From Candidatus Australimonas brisbanensis (GTDB taxonomy: Bacteria; Chloroflexota; Dehalococcoidia; Lucifugimonadales; Australimonadaceae), in NCBI GenBank assembly GCA_038147155.1, contig JAYQTA010000002.1, positions 259,595-323,594 on the forward strand: DNA of 64,000 nucleotides. Direction: 5' to 3'. The translations under genes were made by a program, and so were the position numbers. This document shows positions 3,415 through 64,000 of the stretch, in pieces. Below the pieces are notes generated by a model that saw nothing but the letters and a program-made list of their open reading frames with translations, did not search any database and was not told where the DNA came from. The first letter of the stretch is position 1, and every line of letters begins with the position of its first letter.

Positions 3415-4494
3415 ATGCCCTTCGTTGAACTGTTCAAGGCCAACATCCGCACACTGCTGCGCAACCGGCAGGCGCTGTTCTGGTCGATGGCGTTCCCGCT
3501 CATCTTCGTGTTCGTCTTCGGCCTCTTCTTCGGCGGTGACGCGCAGCGCGCCACGCTCCTGGTGGTGGACAGGGCGGACGATGCGCTCTCCCACCAACTC
3601 GTCGCGCAACTGGAGGCGCTGGACTCGTTCACCGTTCAGCCGAGCACCGACGAGGCCGCCGCCCGCCAGGCGGTGCGGGATGGCGATGCGAGCTACCTGC
3701 TGGTGCTGCCGATGGGCATGGCGTCAACCACCGGGGCGGGTGGCACGGCGAGCGCTCTGCTGGTGTACGACCAGGGCAACGCCTCGGCCCCCGTCGTCAT
3801 CGGCGCGGTGGGACGGATGCTGGACGCCTTCAACCTGGAAGCCTCCGGCGCACCCCGGCTGCTGGCCCTGGAACCCGAGGGCGTGCAGGGCCAGGAACTG
3901 ACCTACTTCGATTTCCTGCTGCCCGGGTTCGTGTCCATGGGCATCATGACCTACTCCATCATCGGTATCGCCTCGGTCATCGCCCTCTACCGGGAGCAGA
4001 AGGTGCTCAAGCGCCTGCTGGCCTCGCCGCTGCGGGTGCGCCACTTCTTCGCTTCCATCGTGGTAGCCCACCTGCTGCTCTCCATGGTGCAGGCGGTGGT
4101 GATCGCGGGGGTCGGCATGGCGCTGTTCGGCGCGATGGTACGCGGGAACCTGGGCATGCTCTTCCTGGTGGTGGTGCTGGGGAACACGGTGTTCCTCTCC
4201 ATCGGGTTCATCATCGGGGCGCTCTCACGCACGGTGCAGGCGGCCAGTGGCCTGGGCAACGCCGTGGCGATGCCCATGATGTTCCTGTCCGGCACGTTCT
4301 TCCCCCGCGACTCACTGCCCGCCGTGCTCAAGGCGGTGGTGGACCTGCTGCCTCTCTCGGCCATGGTGGACCTGCTGCGGGGTATGGCGCTGGACGCGCG
4401 CCCGCTGTGGGACTTCCCTGGGGCGCTGGCGTTGCTGCTGGCGTGGGCGGTGGGCACGGCGCTGGTGGCCGTGCGCGTCTTCCGCTTCTCCTAG
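3415..4494 (+). CDS. ABC-2 type transporter permease
   Basis: 359 aa. One N-terminal TM, a large loop and then 5 TM segments. Lies 8 nt after the ATPase gene. Confidence 0.85.
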   Translation: MPFVELFKANIRTLLRNRQALFWSMAFPLIFVFVFGLFFGGDAQRATLLVVDRADDALSHQLVAQLEALDSFTVQPSTDEAAARQAVRDGDASYLLVLPMGMASTTGAGGTASALLVYDQGNASAPVVIGAVGRMLDAFNLEASGAPRLLALEPEGVQGQELTYFDFLLPGFVSMGIMTYSIIGIASVIALYREQKVLKRLLASPLRVRHFFASIVVAHLLLSMVQAVVIAGVGMALFGAMVRGNLGMLFLVVVLGNTVFLSIGFIIGALSRTVQAASGLGNAVAMPMMFLSGTFFPRDSLPAVLKAVVDLLPLSAMVDLLRGMALDARPLWDFPGALALLLAWAVGTALVAVRVFRFS

Positions 4495-46621: not shown

Positions 46622-46938
46622 GCCTTCACGCCGCCTGCACAACGGCTGCACGCGCCCCGCACATCGGCCTGCACCCACATCACCGGCCCATCACGCACGG
46701 GGGCTACGGTAAGGGTGGATCGGAAGGGTAGGGGGTGAGCCCCCTCTACCAGGGGATCCAGACCAGAGAGCGCGGTGAGGAGGTGCCGATGTGTAATGTA
46801 CGAGGGCAGACCACAAGCCTCCAGGGCCCCGCGAACACGACCCAGGCGCAGTGAAGAACCTCGTCGGTGAGGGCGCGCCATCCGGCTCTCAAGCCGGGAG
46901 CGGCAACGGGGCCCTGGGGCATGACAGAGCATCAGCGA

Positions 46939-46980
46939 AGAGCCCGGACGAGTCATCGTCCGGGCTCTTTTTCGTCTTTT
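46939..46980 (+). terminator. Rho-independent terminator, plus strand
   Basis: AGAGCCCGGACG-agtcat-CGTCCGGGCTCT (12-bp perfect stem) followed by TTTTcgtcTTTT. Lies 318 nt after the purK stop. Confidence 0.8.
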
Positions 46981-61466: not shown

Positions 61467-62459
61467 CTAGGTGTCCAGCGTGTCGGCGGGGAAGACCTCC
61501 TCCAGCGAGTAGCGCCGGCTGGTCTGCCCCTGCTCCGCGTACATGTCGAAGGTCAGTTCCCACAGCTCCCGGTTGGCGGCGACTCCGTGGTTCCACACAT
61601 CGCCCAGCTCCGCCCGCTGGTCACGGAACAGCTCACGCGCGTCCAGCACCAGGTTGTAGGAGGAGCCGTCGCCGCGCGCGTCGTTGATGGCGATCTCGCG
61701 GGAGCGCTCGAAGGCATCGTAGATGCGCCGGGAGAGGCCGGGGTTGGCGCGGTGCAGCTTGCCACCCATGACCATGATGTGGGTGGGCGTGACGAACCCG
61801 TGCTCTTTGCGCAGGTCACGGTGCATCTGCCGATAGTTGGGGAAGAGGCGCTTGACGATGTTCGGGCTGCCCTCCAGGACATCCCAGGCGTCCGGATCGA
61901 TGATGTCGCCCGAACAGGCGTCAACCTCACCGTCCAGGAGGCGCTTCCACTGGGGCTTGCCGTCGGTGCGGTACTCCACGTCCACGGGCTTGTGCAGCGG
62001 CCAGGGGCCGTCCACGTTGGCGATCCACTTGAAGGTGCTGATGTCCACGTCGTGGAAGCGTGCGAGCATGCCCCGCGCGTAGGTGGTCACCACACCCCAC
62101 ATGGAGGTGGCCCACGTCTTGCCTTCCAGGTCCTTGGGTGTCTCGATGCCCCGGTCGGCCCGCACCCAGATGAGGTTGTAGATGGGCTTGCGCTTGATGA
62201 GGATGGGCAGCGCCACCATGTCCCAGCCGTTATCGATGGCGGGGAGCACGTCGCCGATATTGGTGTCCAGCAGGCCGAAGTCCCCGTTCTTGAACCGGGG
62301 GTTCTCCATCTGCCCCGCCGTCTCCATGGCCCCGGCGAAGGTGAACTCCACCCCCTCCACCGGTGCTCGCCCCTGCACGAAGGGCTGCATGATGTCGTAG
62401 CGGAAGTTGGGCTTGGCCGCCTGGGCCTCCACGTGGATACGCAACGGCTCGGTGGGCAT
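61467..62459 (-). CDS. SsuA/THI5-fold, dihydroxyphthalate decarboxylase-like protein (distant paralog of 19067..20059)
   Basis: ATG 62459 lies 6 nt after AGGAGG. 330 aa, the same length as the paralog. Confidence 0.7.
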   Translation of the reverse strand: MPTEPLRIHVEAQAAKPNFRYDIMQPFVQGRAPVEGVEFTFAGAMETAGQMENPRFKNGDFGLLDTNIGDVLPAIDNGWDMVALPILIKRKPIYNLIWVRADRGIETPKDLEGKTWATSMWGVVTTYARGMLARFHDVDISTFKWIANVDGPWPLHKPVDVEYRTDGKPQWKRLLDGEVDACSGDIIDPDAWDVLEGSPNIVKRLFPNYRQMHRDLRKEHGFVTPTHIMVMGGKLHRANPGLSRRIYDAFERSREIAINDARGDGSSYNLVLDARELFRDQRAELGDVWNHGVAANRELWELTFDMYAEQGQTSRRYSLEEVFPADTLDT

Positions 62460-62556
62460 GACGCGCCTCCTCTCGCCCGCTCCAGCGGACGGCGCGAACA
62501 TGATAGCGCGAATAGGGAGCGGCCCGTTAGACGGGCCGCTCCTCGCCCGCAAGCGC

Positions 62557-63225
62557 CTACTTACCCGCGCTGGGGTCGTCCACCTTACGCAGGTAGGGCT
62601 TCACCGTCTCCCAGCCCTGGGGGAAGAGTTGCTTTGCTGCCTCGTTGTCCACGGCGGGCAGGATCACGACCTTGTCGCCCTTGCGCCAGTTGGCGGGGGT
62701 GCCCACCTTGTTCACGGCGGTCAGCTGGGCGGAGTCGATGACCCGCATCAACTCGTCGAAGTTGCGCCCCGTGCTCATGGGGTAGGTCATGGACATCTTC
62801 ACCTTCTTGTCCGGGCCGATCAGGTAGACGGTGCGGACCGTCTGGTTGTCAGCGGCGGTGCGCCCCTCGGAGCTGGCACCCGCGTCGGCGGGGAGCATGT
62901 CGTAGGCCTTGGCCACCGCTAGGTCGTCGTCAGCGATAATGAGGAAGTTGAGCGGCGTGCCCGCCAGGTCCGCGATGTCCTGGGCCCAGCGCTCGTGGTC
63001 GGCCACCTTGTCCACGCTCAGGCCGATGACCTTCACCCCGCGCTTGTCGAACTCCGGCTTGATCCGGGCCACGTGCGAGAGCTCCGTGGCGCAGATGGGG
63101 GTGAAGCCCTTGGGGTGCGAGAAGAGCATCGCCCAGGAATCCCCGAGCCACTGGTGGAACTAAATCTCACCCTCGCTGGTCTTGGCCTTGAAGTCGGGTG
63201 CGGTGTCGTTGATACGGAAGCTCAT
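62557..63225 (-). pseudogene. 1-Cys peroxiredoxin (Prx6-type) with an in-frame TAG at codon 22
   Basis: MSFRINDTAPDFKAKTSEGEI-TAG(63162-63160)-FHQWLGDSWAMLFSHPKGFTPICATEL..., one frame of 223 codons. ATG 63225 lies 5 nt after AAGGAGAA. Confidence 0.75.
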
Positions 63226-63277
63226 GTCGTTTCTCCTTCTCGTGCTTCGAGGTCGGGTTGGGCCGGTATGCGATGGC

Positions 63278-63310
63278 AACAAAAAAGGCAGGCTGCCGGA
63301 GCAGTCTGCC
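63278..63310 (-). terminator. Rho-independent terminator, minus strand, between the polyCys mini-ORF and the peroxiredoxin
   Basis: RNA GGCAGACUGC-uccg-GCAGCCUGCC-UUUUUUGUU (10-bp stem with one A/C mismatch). Confidence 0.75.
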
Positions 63311-63353
63311 TTCAGGTTCCGCGGCCTGGGCCGCTGTATCTGCGCGTGTGGGG

Positions 63354-63413
63354 CTAGCCCTGCTCCTCGAGCGGGTTCACACAGCAACAGTTACAGCAGA
63401 TCCGGTTCGCCAT
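63354..63413 (-). CDS. 19-codon polycysteine mini-ORF (MANRICCNCCCVNPLEEQG)
   Basis: ATG 63413-63411 lies 10 nt after a -10 box. 5 of the 6 codons at positions 6-11 are Cys. TAG at 63356-63354. Below the ORF-track length cut-off. Confidence 0.45.
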   Translation of the reverse strand: MANRICCNCCCVNPLEEQG

Positions 63414-63423
63414 CGGGGGGACG

Positions 63424-63452
63424 AGCCTACGGCGGGGCAGGGGAGGTGTCAA
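63424..63452 (-). promoter_or_regulatory. Near-consensus promoter TTGACA-17 nt-TAGGCT driving the polyCys mini-ORF
   Basis: Minus strand: ggTTGACAcctcccctgccccgccgTAGGCTcgtccccccgATG. It starts 9 nt after the aldolase stop. Confidence 0.55.
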
Positions 63453-63460
63453 CCAGCGCC

Positions 63461-64000
63461 TTAATCTTTATAGGAGGGGTCGAGCCGGTCCAGCGTGCGC
63501 AGCAGCCACCCCCACTCCACGGACTGGTAGCGCAGGTTGCGCGCCGACGAGGCCTTCTCCATCACGGCGGGCGGCGGCAGGTGAACGGGCTCGCCTGTTG
63601 AACGGGCCAGCACCTGCACCTGGCACGCGCGCTCCAGCTGCCACATGGCCACCCACGCCTGGGGCACGGTGGCGCCCATGGTGAGCAGGCCGTGGTTCTT
63701 GAGGATCATGGCGTTCTTCTCGCCCAGGTCCGTCACCAGCCGTTCCCGCTCGTCCAGGTTGGTGGCCTGGCCCTCGAAGGCGTGGTAGGCGATCCGGTCG
63801 TGGAACTGGAAAGCGTCCTGCTGGAGGGGCGTGAGGCCCTCTTCCAAGGCCGAGACCGCCATGCCGCAGAGGGTGTGGGTGTGCATGACGCAGCCCACAT
63901 CGTGACGAGCGCCGTGGACGGCTGAGTGGATGACGTAGCCGGGGAAGTTGATGCGGTGCTCTCCGGGTTCCAGCACGTTGCCCTGCAGGTCTATCTTCAC
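63461..64000 (-). CDS. Class II aldolase/adducin family protein, C-terminal part (N-terminus beyond window end)
   Basis: GYVIHSAVHGARHDVGCVMHTHT, ILKNHGLLTMG. TAA stop at 63461-63463. Confidence 0.85.
   Translation of the reverse strand: MKIDLQGNVLEPGEHRINFPGYVIHSAVHGARHDVGCVMHTHTLCGMAVSALEEGLTPLQQDAFQFHDRIAYHAFEGQATNLDERERLVTDLGEKNAMILKNHGLLTMGATVPQAWVAMWQLERACQVQVLARSTGEPVHLPPPAVMEKASSARNLRYQSVEWGWLLRTLDRLDPSYKD

Follow-up and report, generated by a model that had tools for sequence, protein, structure and literature searches.

The window analysed here, that is, the whole 64,000-nt stretch of contig JAYQTA010000002.1 from Candidatus Australimonas brisbanensis (Chloroflexota; Dehalococcoidia), carries on its minus strand a gene encoding a Prx6/LsfA-type 1-Cys peroxiredoxin (Prx). 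Between this gene and the class II aldolase-family gene situated upstream of it lies a leader of ~135 nt, composed of a promoter-like pair of hexamers, a short cysteine-rich open reading frame (mini-ORF), and a hairpin followed by a U-run, which was analysed as a candidate cysteine-responsive attenuator. When the leader was re-read on the minus strand, its elements followed one another as TTGACA, 17 nt, TAGGCT, 10 nt, the mini-ORF, a spacer, the terminator, a Shine–Dalgarno sequence (SD), and Prx. The promoter, mini-ORF, 43-nt spacer with its hairpin, terminator, and SD that the original prediction had read from the letters of the DNA were all present, and its 46-nt distance from the terminator to the SD and start codon of Prx was corrected: the U-run ends 39 nt before AAGGAGAA and 52 nt before the Prx ATG. 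The features of the leader and of the gene behind it are listed below; the three leader variants mentioned in the list are the one in the window and two related ones described further on.

63447–63452, minus strand: −35 hexamer TTGACA, a perfect consensus, invariant across the three leader variants with differing flanks
63424–63429, minus strand: −10-like hexamer TAGGCT (TANNNT type), 17 nt past the −35 hexamer and 10 nt before the AUG
63354–63413, minus strand: mini-ORF of 19 codons plus TAG, encoding MANRICCNCCCVNPLEEQG, with the ATG at 63413 and the TAG at 63356–63354
63381–63398, minus strand: Cys-codon block, codons 6–11 (TGC TGT AAC TGT TGC TGT), by direct reading
63352–63366, minus strand: GGAGCAGGGCUAGCC, predicted 5′ strand of an antiterminator, the best upstream partner of the terminator 5′ arm
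63331–63350, minus strand: post-stop segment pairing with the Cys-codon tract (putative 3′ strand of an anti-antiterminator) in the minimum free energy (MFE) fold of the untranslated leader in the three variants
63353–63311, minus strand: 43-nt spacer from the mini-ORF to the terminator, containing the middle hairpin
63321–63334, minus strand: middle hairpin GCGGC-ccag-GCCGC, enclosed by the predicted antiterminator
63278–63312, minus strand: terminator AAGGCAGaCUGC-uccg-GCAGcCUGCCUU plus U-run, stem-loop invariant across the variants
63310–63301, 63296–63287 and 63286–63278, minus strand: terminator core, consisting of GGCAGACUGC, the loop uccg, GCAGCCUGCC and UUUUUUGUU, respectively
63298–63310, minus strand: predicted antiterminator 3′ strand, equal to the terminator 5′ arm plus loop
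63249–63279, minus strand: conserved post-terminator block, 19 of 23 columns invariant
63231–63238, minus strand: SD of Prx, AAGGAGAA, with the Prx ATG at 63225
62557–63238, minus strand: Prx6/LsfA-type 1-Cys peroxiredoxin with its SD, from Pfam and structure searches

The mini-ORF encodes Cys at codons 6, 7, 9, 10, and 11, and no SD was found in the 10 nt between the −10 hexamer and its ATG. GGAGCAGGGCUAGCC spans the last base of codon 15, codons 16–19, the stop codon, and 2 nt beyond. The stem of the middle hairpin was kept in the three variants with one one-sided compatible change and a differing loop, and the terminator (−17.8 kcal/mol) holds one A·C mismatch in its stem and ends in a U-run of the form U6GUU. 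As a pattern, the leader can be written, for example, as ATGGCGAAC-N(6-9)-(TGY-rich)-...GGAGCAGGGCTAGCC...GGCAGACTGCTCCGGCAGCCTGCC-T-run, and in full it folded better than shuffled sequences (z = −2.55). Rfam cmscan over positions 62000–64000 (E ≤ 10) gave nothing above threshold, the top leader match, Atu_C4, scoring 17.3 bits where the gathering score is 80. Likewise, a generic promoter/terminator scan with fixed thresholds listed neither the leader promoter nor the leader terminator, the former because its −10 hexamer agrees with TATAAT at only three of six positions and the latter because its stem holds the internal mismatch.

Between the end of the −10 hexamer and the AUG there are 10 nt in the window and the variant represented by contig L163 and 9 nt in that of contig L001, a spacing that predicts a 5′ untranslated region (UTR) of ~2–4 nt without an SD. 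Genes predicted to be leaderless have the TANNNT hexamer beginning ~12 nt (first T) and ending ~6 nt upstream of the start site, and Chloroflexi were scored with few such genes (PMC3160421). The start of the leader is predicted from these distances to be near-leaderless and not strictly leaderless, and translation of an mRNA with a 5′ UTR of this length and no SD is plausible. Concerning the transcription of Prx, none of the three variants has a TANNNT in the segment from the U-run to the Prx ATG, which in L001 is devoid even of TA dinucleotides; transcription of Prx must therefore pass through the terminator.

The three leader variants are that of the window, shared by contig L177; that of L001 (JAYNIL010000002.1), shared by L166; and a third one that is identical in four JGI contigs (L161, L163, L164, and L165). 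L001 was obtained from a Prx scan with one genome per species, and the third variant from a protein search, in which a single 90% cluster surrounded the query, combined with contig look-ups; partial Logan copies of the L001-type leader were also recovered. In the JGI contigs retrieved, the mini-ORF had been left uncalled by the gene callers. The Prx genes situated beside the other two variants are 93–96% identical to that of the window (93% in L001), and their leader peptides are MANHLCCCTCCCKNPLEEQG in L001 and MANRTCCCTCSCENPLEEQG in the third variant. The promoter, ATG, Cys block, stop codon, and terminator are common to the three variants, with the −10-like hexamer reading TAGGCT in the L163 group and TATGCC, without the final T, in L001. 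Homologous mini-ORFs upstream of prx genes, which had been proposed as a way of checking the original prediction, were thus found in the form of a Cys-rich leader ORF in two further variants.

As a coding frame, the mini-ORF showed an uneven pattern of change across these few sequences, which are three close variants. The ATG, the first three codons (MAN), the last seven codons (NPLEEQG), and the stop codon were invariant, and the non-Cys positions 4, 5, 9, and 13 of the 20-codon alignment varied (R/H/R, I/L/T, N/T/T, and V/K/E, respectively). TGT/TGC swaps preserved Cys in three columns, one Cys was replaced by Ser, and the only indel within the ORF was a 3-nt one corresponding to the clean gain or loss of one Cys codon. 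A 1-nt indel just upstream of the ATG means that no longer upstream frame is conserved. The window has five Cys in six codons, arranged as CC and CCC, and the other variants have five to six, with CCC in both L001 and L163. From the sequences, such a pattern would be expected if several in-frame Cys codons matter, and it is unlike that of a folded peptide. Since the post-stop segment, rich in RCA, is also a pairing partner of the UGY repeats, selection at the RNA level would contribute to it.

The Cys block is exceptional within the window, which has a G+C content of 69.8%. In its 38 likely coding frames, Cys accounts for 0.93% of codons and TGT for 17% of the Cys codons; given this background, five Cys in six codons has a probability of ~4e-10 per position. 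The mini-ORF was the only stretch with at least five Cys in six codons in the six frames of the window, and the sole Cys-rich stretch inside a short start-to-stop intergenic ORF; other, weaker Cys-rich stretches corresponded to off-frames of larger genes or had no start. Runs of at least five T were also scarce, with only four on both strands, the longest of which belongs to the leader terminator. Two of the four directly follow strong GC hairpins, namely the leader terminator and one near 46930–46972 on the plus strand, which shows that the organism uses terminators made of a hairpin and a U-run, and uses them sparingly. The second of them (GAGCCCGGACGA-gtca-TCGTCCGGGCTC followed by TTTTT, ~46930–46972, plus strand) is situated 3′ of a plus-strand ORF. 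A separate observation on codon choice is that the leader Cys codons favour the rare TGT (7 of 16 across the variants versus the 17% background; binomial P ~0.01, with non-independent sequences), a preference that could slow decoding.

When invariant columns were counted in the three-way alignment, the leader appeared as a mosaic of strongly conserved and variable segments. The block with the antiterminator 5′ strand was invariant at 26 of 27 columns and the terminator stem-loop at 26 of 26. The counts were 2/19 before the −35 hexamer, 2/9 between the −10 hexamer and the ATG, 17/31 in the Cys-containing, variable part of the ORF, 22/42 in the post-stop spacer, and 6/18 between the post-terminator block and the SD. 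Taken together, the antiterminator-strand and terminator blocks had 52 of 53 invariant columns versus 32 of 88 in the other non-coding leader segments (Fisher P = 4e-15).

The relationship between these two conserved blocks became apparent on folding. In all three variants, the best upstream partner of the terminator 5′ arm was GGAGCAGGGCUAGCC, which pairs with GGCAGACUGCUCC in a helix of 12 bp arranged as 7+2+3, with an energy of −19.7 kcal/mol that was equalled by 3–4% of dinucleotide shuffles. The nascent transcript was folded up to the terminator loop with the footprint of a ribosome masked codon by codon. With the A-site on codons ~5–13, all 12 antiterminator pairs formed in the MFE structure, and none formed with the ribosome at codons 14–15 or later, or at the stop codon; this result was stable for footprint 3′ edges from A+9 to A+15. 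In the window leader the pairs were also absent without a ribosome and with the ribosome at codons 1–4, and in L001 and L163 they also formed at codons 1–5. In the untranslated fold, the Cys tract and the post-stop segment were paired with each other, and GGAGCAG was located in a local hairpin with CCCGCUC. The predicted pairing of the Cys-codon stretch with CACACG just after the stop was recovered in the MFE fold as GUGUG/CACAC; judging from the folds, this contact between the Cys tract and the post-stop segment is better read as an anti-antiterminator.

To express the effect as an energy, sequestration of the terminator 5′ arm was computed per codon as the free-energy cost of freeing it. It climbed as the A-site entered the Cys block and was maximal in the window at codons 8–12, where it reached 8.4–10.4 kcal/mol, compared with 3.1–3.2 kcal/mol without a ribosome or with the ribosome at the stop. 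The corresponding values were 8.2–9.4 kcal/mol at codons 8–12 and 3.6–4.1 kcal/mol in L001, and 10.7–11.5 kcal/mol at codons 6–11 and 4.4–4.5 kcal/mol in L163. The switch margin, which uses the mean over the Cys codons, was 4.1 kcal/mol in the window, 3.7 in L001, and 6.2 in L163, with shuffles at −0.6 ± 1.9, and the observed margins were attained in 1/200, 1/200, and 0/200 shuffles of the upstream part, respectively. Two other switch statistics were discarded as uninformative: the first, any pairing of the 5′ arm, counted weak local hairpins as pairing, and the second, the minimum over the Cys codons, suffered from the position of the first Cys codons at the edge of the effective zone.

The folding models, read together with the conservation of the leader, lead us to favour, with reasonable though not high confidence, a ribosome-mediated transcription attenuator of the trp/his type in which Cys is the regulatory codon and which would control read-through into the Prx6/LsfA-type Prx. 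Transcription would begin at TTGACA-17-TAGGCT, a few nt before the AUG, and a ribosome would translate the leader ORF of 19–20 codons. With plentiful Cys-tRNA, the ribosome would reach the UAG and cover GGAGCAGGGCUAGCC, allowing the terminator hairpin to form and transcription to stop at the U-run. When Cys-tRNA is scarce, the ribosome would stall at codons 6–12, separating the Cys tract from the post-stop segment and leaving GGAGCAGGGCUAGCC free; the latter would pair with GGCAGACUGCUCC before the 3′ arm is made, and RNA polymerase would read into Prx. If the leader is not translated at all, the Cys tract and post-stop segment would remain paired, GGAGCAG would stay in its local hairpin, and termination would follow. 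The proposal of the original prediction that stalling at Cys codons relieves the terminator thus holds in silico, by virtue of the conserved Cys ORF, the location of the terminator in the only plausible Prx transcript, and the ribosome-dependent antiterminator.

As to what such a switch would be for, by analogy with Pseudomonas, it is likely that sulfur or cysteine limitation would induce a peroxidase needing one Cys. A tentative extension, which we hold to be rather doubtful, is that the charging of Cys-tRNA serves as a proxy of thiol/sulfur status and controls an antioxidant enzyme instead of providing feedback on Cys synthesis, with depletion or oxidation stalling the ribosome; oxidised thiols as the trigger are a matter of speculation. 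The original prediction had been aware of no link between a polycysteine leader and a peroxiredoxin. This stood for leader-peptide attenuators, for which none was found in the literature searches, and has to be amended at the level of the enzyme, where the induction of LsfA by sulfur starvation constitutes an indirect precedent (PMC12581299, PMC4199769).

Several points weigh against the attenuator interpretation. Only three closely related variants are available, with Prx nucleotide identities of 90–94%, and at such low divergence the conservation of synonymous sites in NPLEEQG does not by itself reach significance (P = 0.44). The test for compensatory covariation found none in either the antiterminator or the terminator, because both strands are invariant, and the energy of the duplex is only modestly unusual (~3.5% of shuffles). 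The switch statistic was chosen after the folds were known, and the three leaders on which it was computed are non-independent. At equilibrium with the full leader, the probability of the terminator was 0.45–0.77 on some L163 Cys codons and 0.68 at one window codon, but at least 0.94 throughout in L001; with the terminator favoured overall at equilibrium, the switch must be kinetic and co-transcriptional, as in the trp attenuator. The −10 hexamer is weak and in L001 (TATGCC) has no conserved final T; its distance to the AUG is 9–10 nt versus the 6–7 nt of typical leaderless genes (PMC3160421), and the predicted translation of the mini-ORF lacks an SD, so its efficiency is not assured. Finally, the Prx target does not belong to Cys biosynthesis, it is a probable pseudogene in the window, and the leader is missing in 148 other Prx6 loci as well as in closer Dehalococcoidia orthologues, as described below.

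The promoter, ORF, and terminator of the leader also amount to a complete transcription unit, and they could represent a stand-alone gene for a Cys-rich small protein with an acidic tail (NPLEEQG), equipped with its own promoter and terminator, in which case Prx would be expressed by leaky read-through. The MAN N-terminus and the NPLEEQG C-terminus, invariant in the three variants, fit this explanation, as does the position of the ORF next to a 1-Cys Prx requiring an external reductant; possible roles for the peptide include metal binding, redox buffering, or acting as the thiol partner missing from the 1-Cys peroxiredoxin. However, the residues among the cysteines vary freely, and even one Cys is replaced by Ser; the invariant block extends 3 nt beyond the stop codon and matches its terminator partner base for base; and no modifying, export, or partner genes were found in the vicinity of the leader. 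Furthermore, since Prx has no promoter of its own past the terminator, the terminator sits in the Prx 5′ UTR, which argues against both an independent small gene and the mere 3′ end of the aldolase gene. We consider a stand-alone gene unlikely, and it would be compatible with attenuation and does not exclude it.

The second of these options, that the hairpin and U-run are simply the terminator of the aldolase gene and that the Cys ORF and promoter-like hexamers arose fortuitously in the 150-nt gap, appears improbable to us. Here, Prx would depend on unregulated read-through or on an unrecognised promoter. The terminator is indeed located ~150 nt past the aldolase stop on the same strand, the aldolase gene has no other terminator 3′ of it, the generic promoter scan was empty, and the ORF has no SD. 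Against this, TTGACA and the ATG...TAG frame are kept in the three variants amid intergenic bases that are only 11–55% invariant, the indel preserves the reading frame and synonymous changes preserve Cys, the density of Cys codons lies far outside chance expectation (P ~4e-10), and the ribosome-position-dependent switch was matched by no more than 1 in 200 shuffles. A dual role, in which the terminator of the attenuator also ends aldolase transcripts, is possible.

A translational or mRNA-stability switch like that of the mycobacterial polycysteine short ORFs (sORFs), with Prx expression set, for example, by a helix between the mini-ORF start region and the post-terminator block or by Rho acting on the untranslated leader, can draw on the sole experimentally dissected polycysteine sORF, which works on translation (10.1101/834739), on the conserved 9–10-bp pairing of the mini-ORF start region with the block past the U-run, and on a terminator that is hard to outcompete at equilibrium, but it is scarcely probable, given that the predicted folds pair the Prx SD (AAGGAG) neither with the Cys tract nor with a conserved partner, that the terminator is a canonical stem and U-run with 100% conservation, and that another conserved segment is predicted to pair with its 5′ arm depending on the position of the ribosome. 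The helix just mentioned joins UUGCCAUCG (63271–63279, minus strand), located right after the U-run, with the complementary CGAUGGCGA (63407–63415, minus strand) in the mini-ORF start region; it comprises 9–10 bp in each of the three variants, has undergone two changes, each one-sided and compatible with pairing, was seen in the MFE fold, and would bury the leader AUG in read-through transcripts. The post-terminator block itself (GCCATCGCAYNCCGGCCCAACC, 63249–63277, minus strand) may represent an operator or an RNA element, or belong to this helix.

Regarding its distribution, the leader was confined to close relatives of the window locus. The genome-contig scan with Prx showed it in L001 alone of 80 loci, and the metagenome-contig scan with Prx gave no Cys-rich leader among the matches listed, all of which had identities of at most 67%. 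In a set of 149 Prx6 loci that span many phyla and have 150 nt or more of upstream sequence, a comparable mini-ORF was present only in L001; a CCGCC frame upstream of Prx in L014 (Rhodospirillaceae) was dismissed as noise, having no start codon and no terminator. A scan of viral contigs with the conserved-block pattern gave no matches, and the nearest Prx outgroups (P0002, P0006, P0012, and P0024) lacked the leader and had other contexts. The closest Prx relatives in the one-genome-per-species scan were metagenome-assembled genomes of Chloroflexota/Dehalococcoidia. In six Dehalococcoidia orthologues (L002–L007, 80% identity), Prx is directly preceded by a pfkB-like kinase gene and a TATAAT promoter in place of the leader. 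Across the 80–82% identical orthologues (L002–L007, at ~3900–4000, and additionally L168 and L169), the upstream region was characterised by the pfkB-family kinase and a near-consensus TATAAT/TATACT box, with neither leader ORF nor terminator, and the same enzyme is, to judge by these sequences, wired differently in sister lineages. The absence of the leader from all more distant loci points to a young, lineage-specific acquisition in a narrow clade.

The regulated gene was assigned by its domains, PF00578 AhpC-TSA (E = 4.9e-27) and PF10417 1-cysPrx_C (E = 6.1e-08), and its closest solved chains are 6p0w_A and 7kuu_A (E ~1e-70), both Prx6-type bacterial enzymes. Its single Cys lies in HPKGFTPIC (PxxxTPxC motif), and a Pseudomonas locus is 62% identical to it. 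These domains agree with the 1-Cys peroxiredoxin named in the original prediction, which had overlooked an in-frame TAG at codon 22 (63160–63162). In L001 and L163 this codon is CAG (Gln22) and the ORF is intact, and the public annotation contains only a 190-aa remainder of Prx (P0122). The same TAG occurs at ~position 780 in L177, an independently assembled JGI metagenome contig with 99.58% identity to the window (9 mismatches and 2 gaps over 3.1 kb), so that it represents a real allele rather than a random error in the reads. The window Prx is likely, from these comparisons, to be a recent pseudogene or a population polymorphism. The leader is intact in the window despite the TAG; with 99.6% identity between the window and L177, there has been no time for it to decay. 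Downstream of the Prx stop, before the next gene begins, is a strong 11-bp GC hairpin without a U-run (GGAGCGGCCCG-tctaa-CGGGCCGCTCC, 62516–62542, minus strand), which accounts for spurious miRNA-like Rfam matches at 62505–62549.

The two genes that flank the leader and Prx in the window do so in L001 and L163 as well:

63461–64000, minus strand: class II aldolase-family gene, matching NF005451 (aldolase II superfamily)
61467–62459, minus strand: gene for a 330-aa NMT1/THI5-like protein, whose closest solved relative is the 4,5-dihydroxyphthalate decarboxylase 9jp7_A (E = 1e-15)

The aldolase-family protein also weakly matches 3,4-dihydroxyphthalate decarboxylase. Two other assignments were rejected, that of the 330-aa protein as sulfonate-binding, for which there was no NCBIfam match and whose nearest solved relative is the decarboxylase, and that of the upstream aldolase as MtnB, for which NF005451 matched and the mtnB models scored far below their cut-offs. 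By these similarities, the neighbours of Prx hint at aromatic-acid decarboxylation chemistry and not at sulfur metabolism.

Classical attenuators include E. coli trpL, Salmonella hisL, and the leu, thr, ilv, and phe leaders. Like them, the leader described here has a short ORF enriched in the codons of one amino acid, a stop codon beside or within region 2, and an anti-antiterminator/antiterminator/terminator logic followed by a U-run, and termination is predicted both with fast translation and without translation. Unlike them, it uses Cys as the regulatory codon, and its target is an antioxidant enzyme and not the biosynthesis or charging of the sensed amino acid. It also differs in belonging to a Chloroflexota host, in having an ORF without an SD that starts 9–10 nt past the −10 hexamer, and in lacking an Rfam leader match.

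For cysteine, attenuation mediated by an upstream ORF was stated as not described before in a 2020 preprint (Canestrari et al., 10.1101/834739), which reported mycobacterial polycysteine leaderless sORFs (Ms5788A, Rv2334A, and others; the 'Cys ribulon') as Cys-responsive attenuators; they are the one cysteine case that has been studied by experiment. The leader shares with these an unannotated short ORF with consecutive Cys codons as the first cistron, the lack of an SD, and a directly adjacent promoter; in both cases the Cys tract pairs with downstream RNA, and stalling at Cys codons is proposed to lift repression. In contrast, the dissected mycobacterial sORF sequesters the SD of the next gene and exerts translational control with no intrinsic terminator (10.1101/834739), whereas our leader has a terminator and a predicted antiterminator, its Cys tract pairs with the post-stop segment, and the Prx SD is free. 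The Cys tract is located mid-ORF here and at the C-terminus in mycobacteria, the phylum is different, and no homology is evident. The targets also diverge: the mycobacterial ones are genes of cysteine, sulfur, or mycothiol metabolism, and the one here is a Prx6 with aldolase-II and decarboxylase-like neighbours. Short ORFs with runs of Cys codons are likewise situated upstream of regulated genes in Actinobacteria, where candidate Cys leader peptides that precede cys/cbs operons were proposed to depend on Rho (Seliverstov et al. 2005, PMC1262725); unlike the leader in the window, these have no obvious terminators and stand before Cys biosynthesis genes. The leader would, on the model presented here, work like a trp/his attenuator, and we have filed it outside the mycobacterial translational class.

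Literature searches revealed no leader-peptide attenuator for Chloroflexi, none tied to a peroxiredoxin, and no cysteine switch acting by transcription termination; the cysteine attenuators so far are translational (SD-sequestering) or terminator-less candidates, all from Actinobacteria. If the proposed mechanism is true, the leader would be the first cysteine attenuator acting via an intrinsic terminator that we found described, the first leader-peptide attenuator that we found reported for Chloroflexota, and the first that we found on a stress-defence rather than a biosynthetic gene, implying that amino-acid-sensing leaders can govern stress-defence genes. Its impact is limited by a narrow, uncultured clade and by a target gene that is broken in this genome, and the ~135-nt element is compact enough for in vitro testing.

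The closest functional parallel is provided by Pseudomonas LsfA, a member of the same enzyme subfamily. This Prx6-subfamily protein rises more than 45-fold on sulfur starvation (PMC12581299), and lsfA, named for its induction by low sulfate, is upregulated alongside a cluster of organosulfur-uptake (ABC transporter) genes (PMC4199769); it ranks among the genes that respond most strongly to sulfur starvation (PMC12581299, PMC4199769). Neither of these reports describes a leader-peptide mechanism for Pseudomonas lsfA. What the two systems would have in common is the logic by which a shortage of sulfur or cysteine raises the level of 1-Cys Prx, and the leader, if it operates as suggested, would constitute an independent, RNA-based route to the outcome seen in Pseudomonas, in which sulfur starvation induces a 1-Cys peroxiredoxin.

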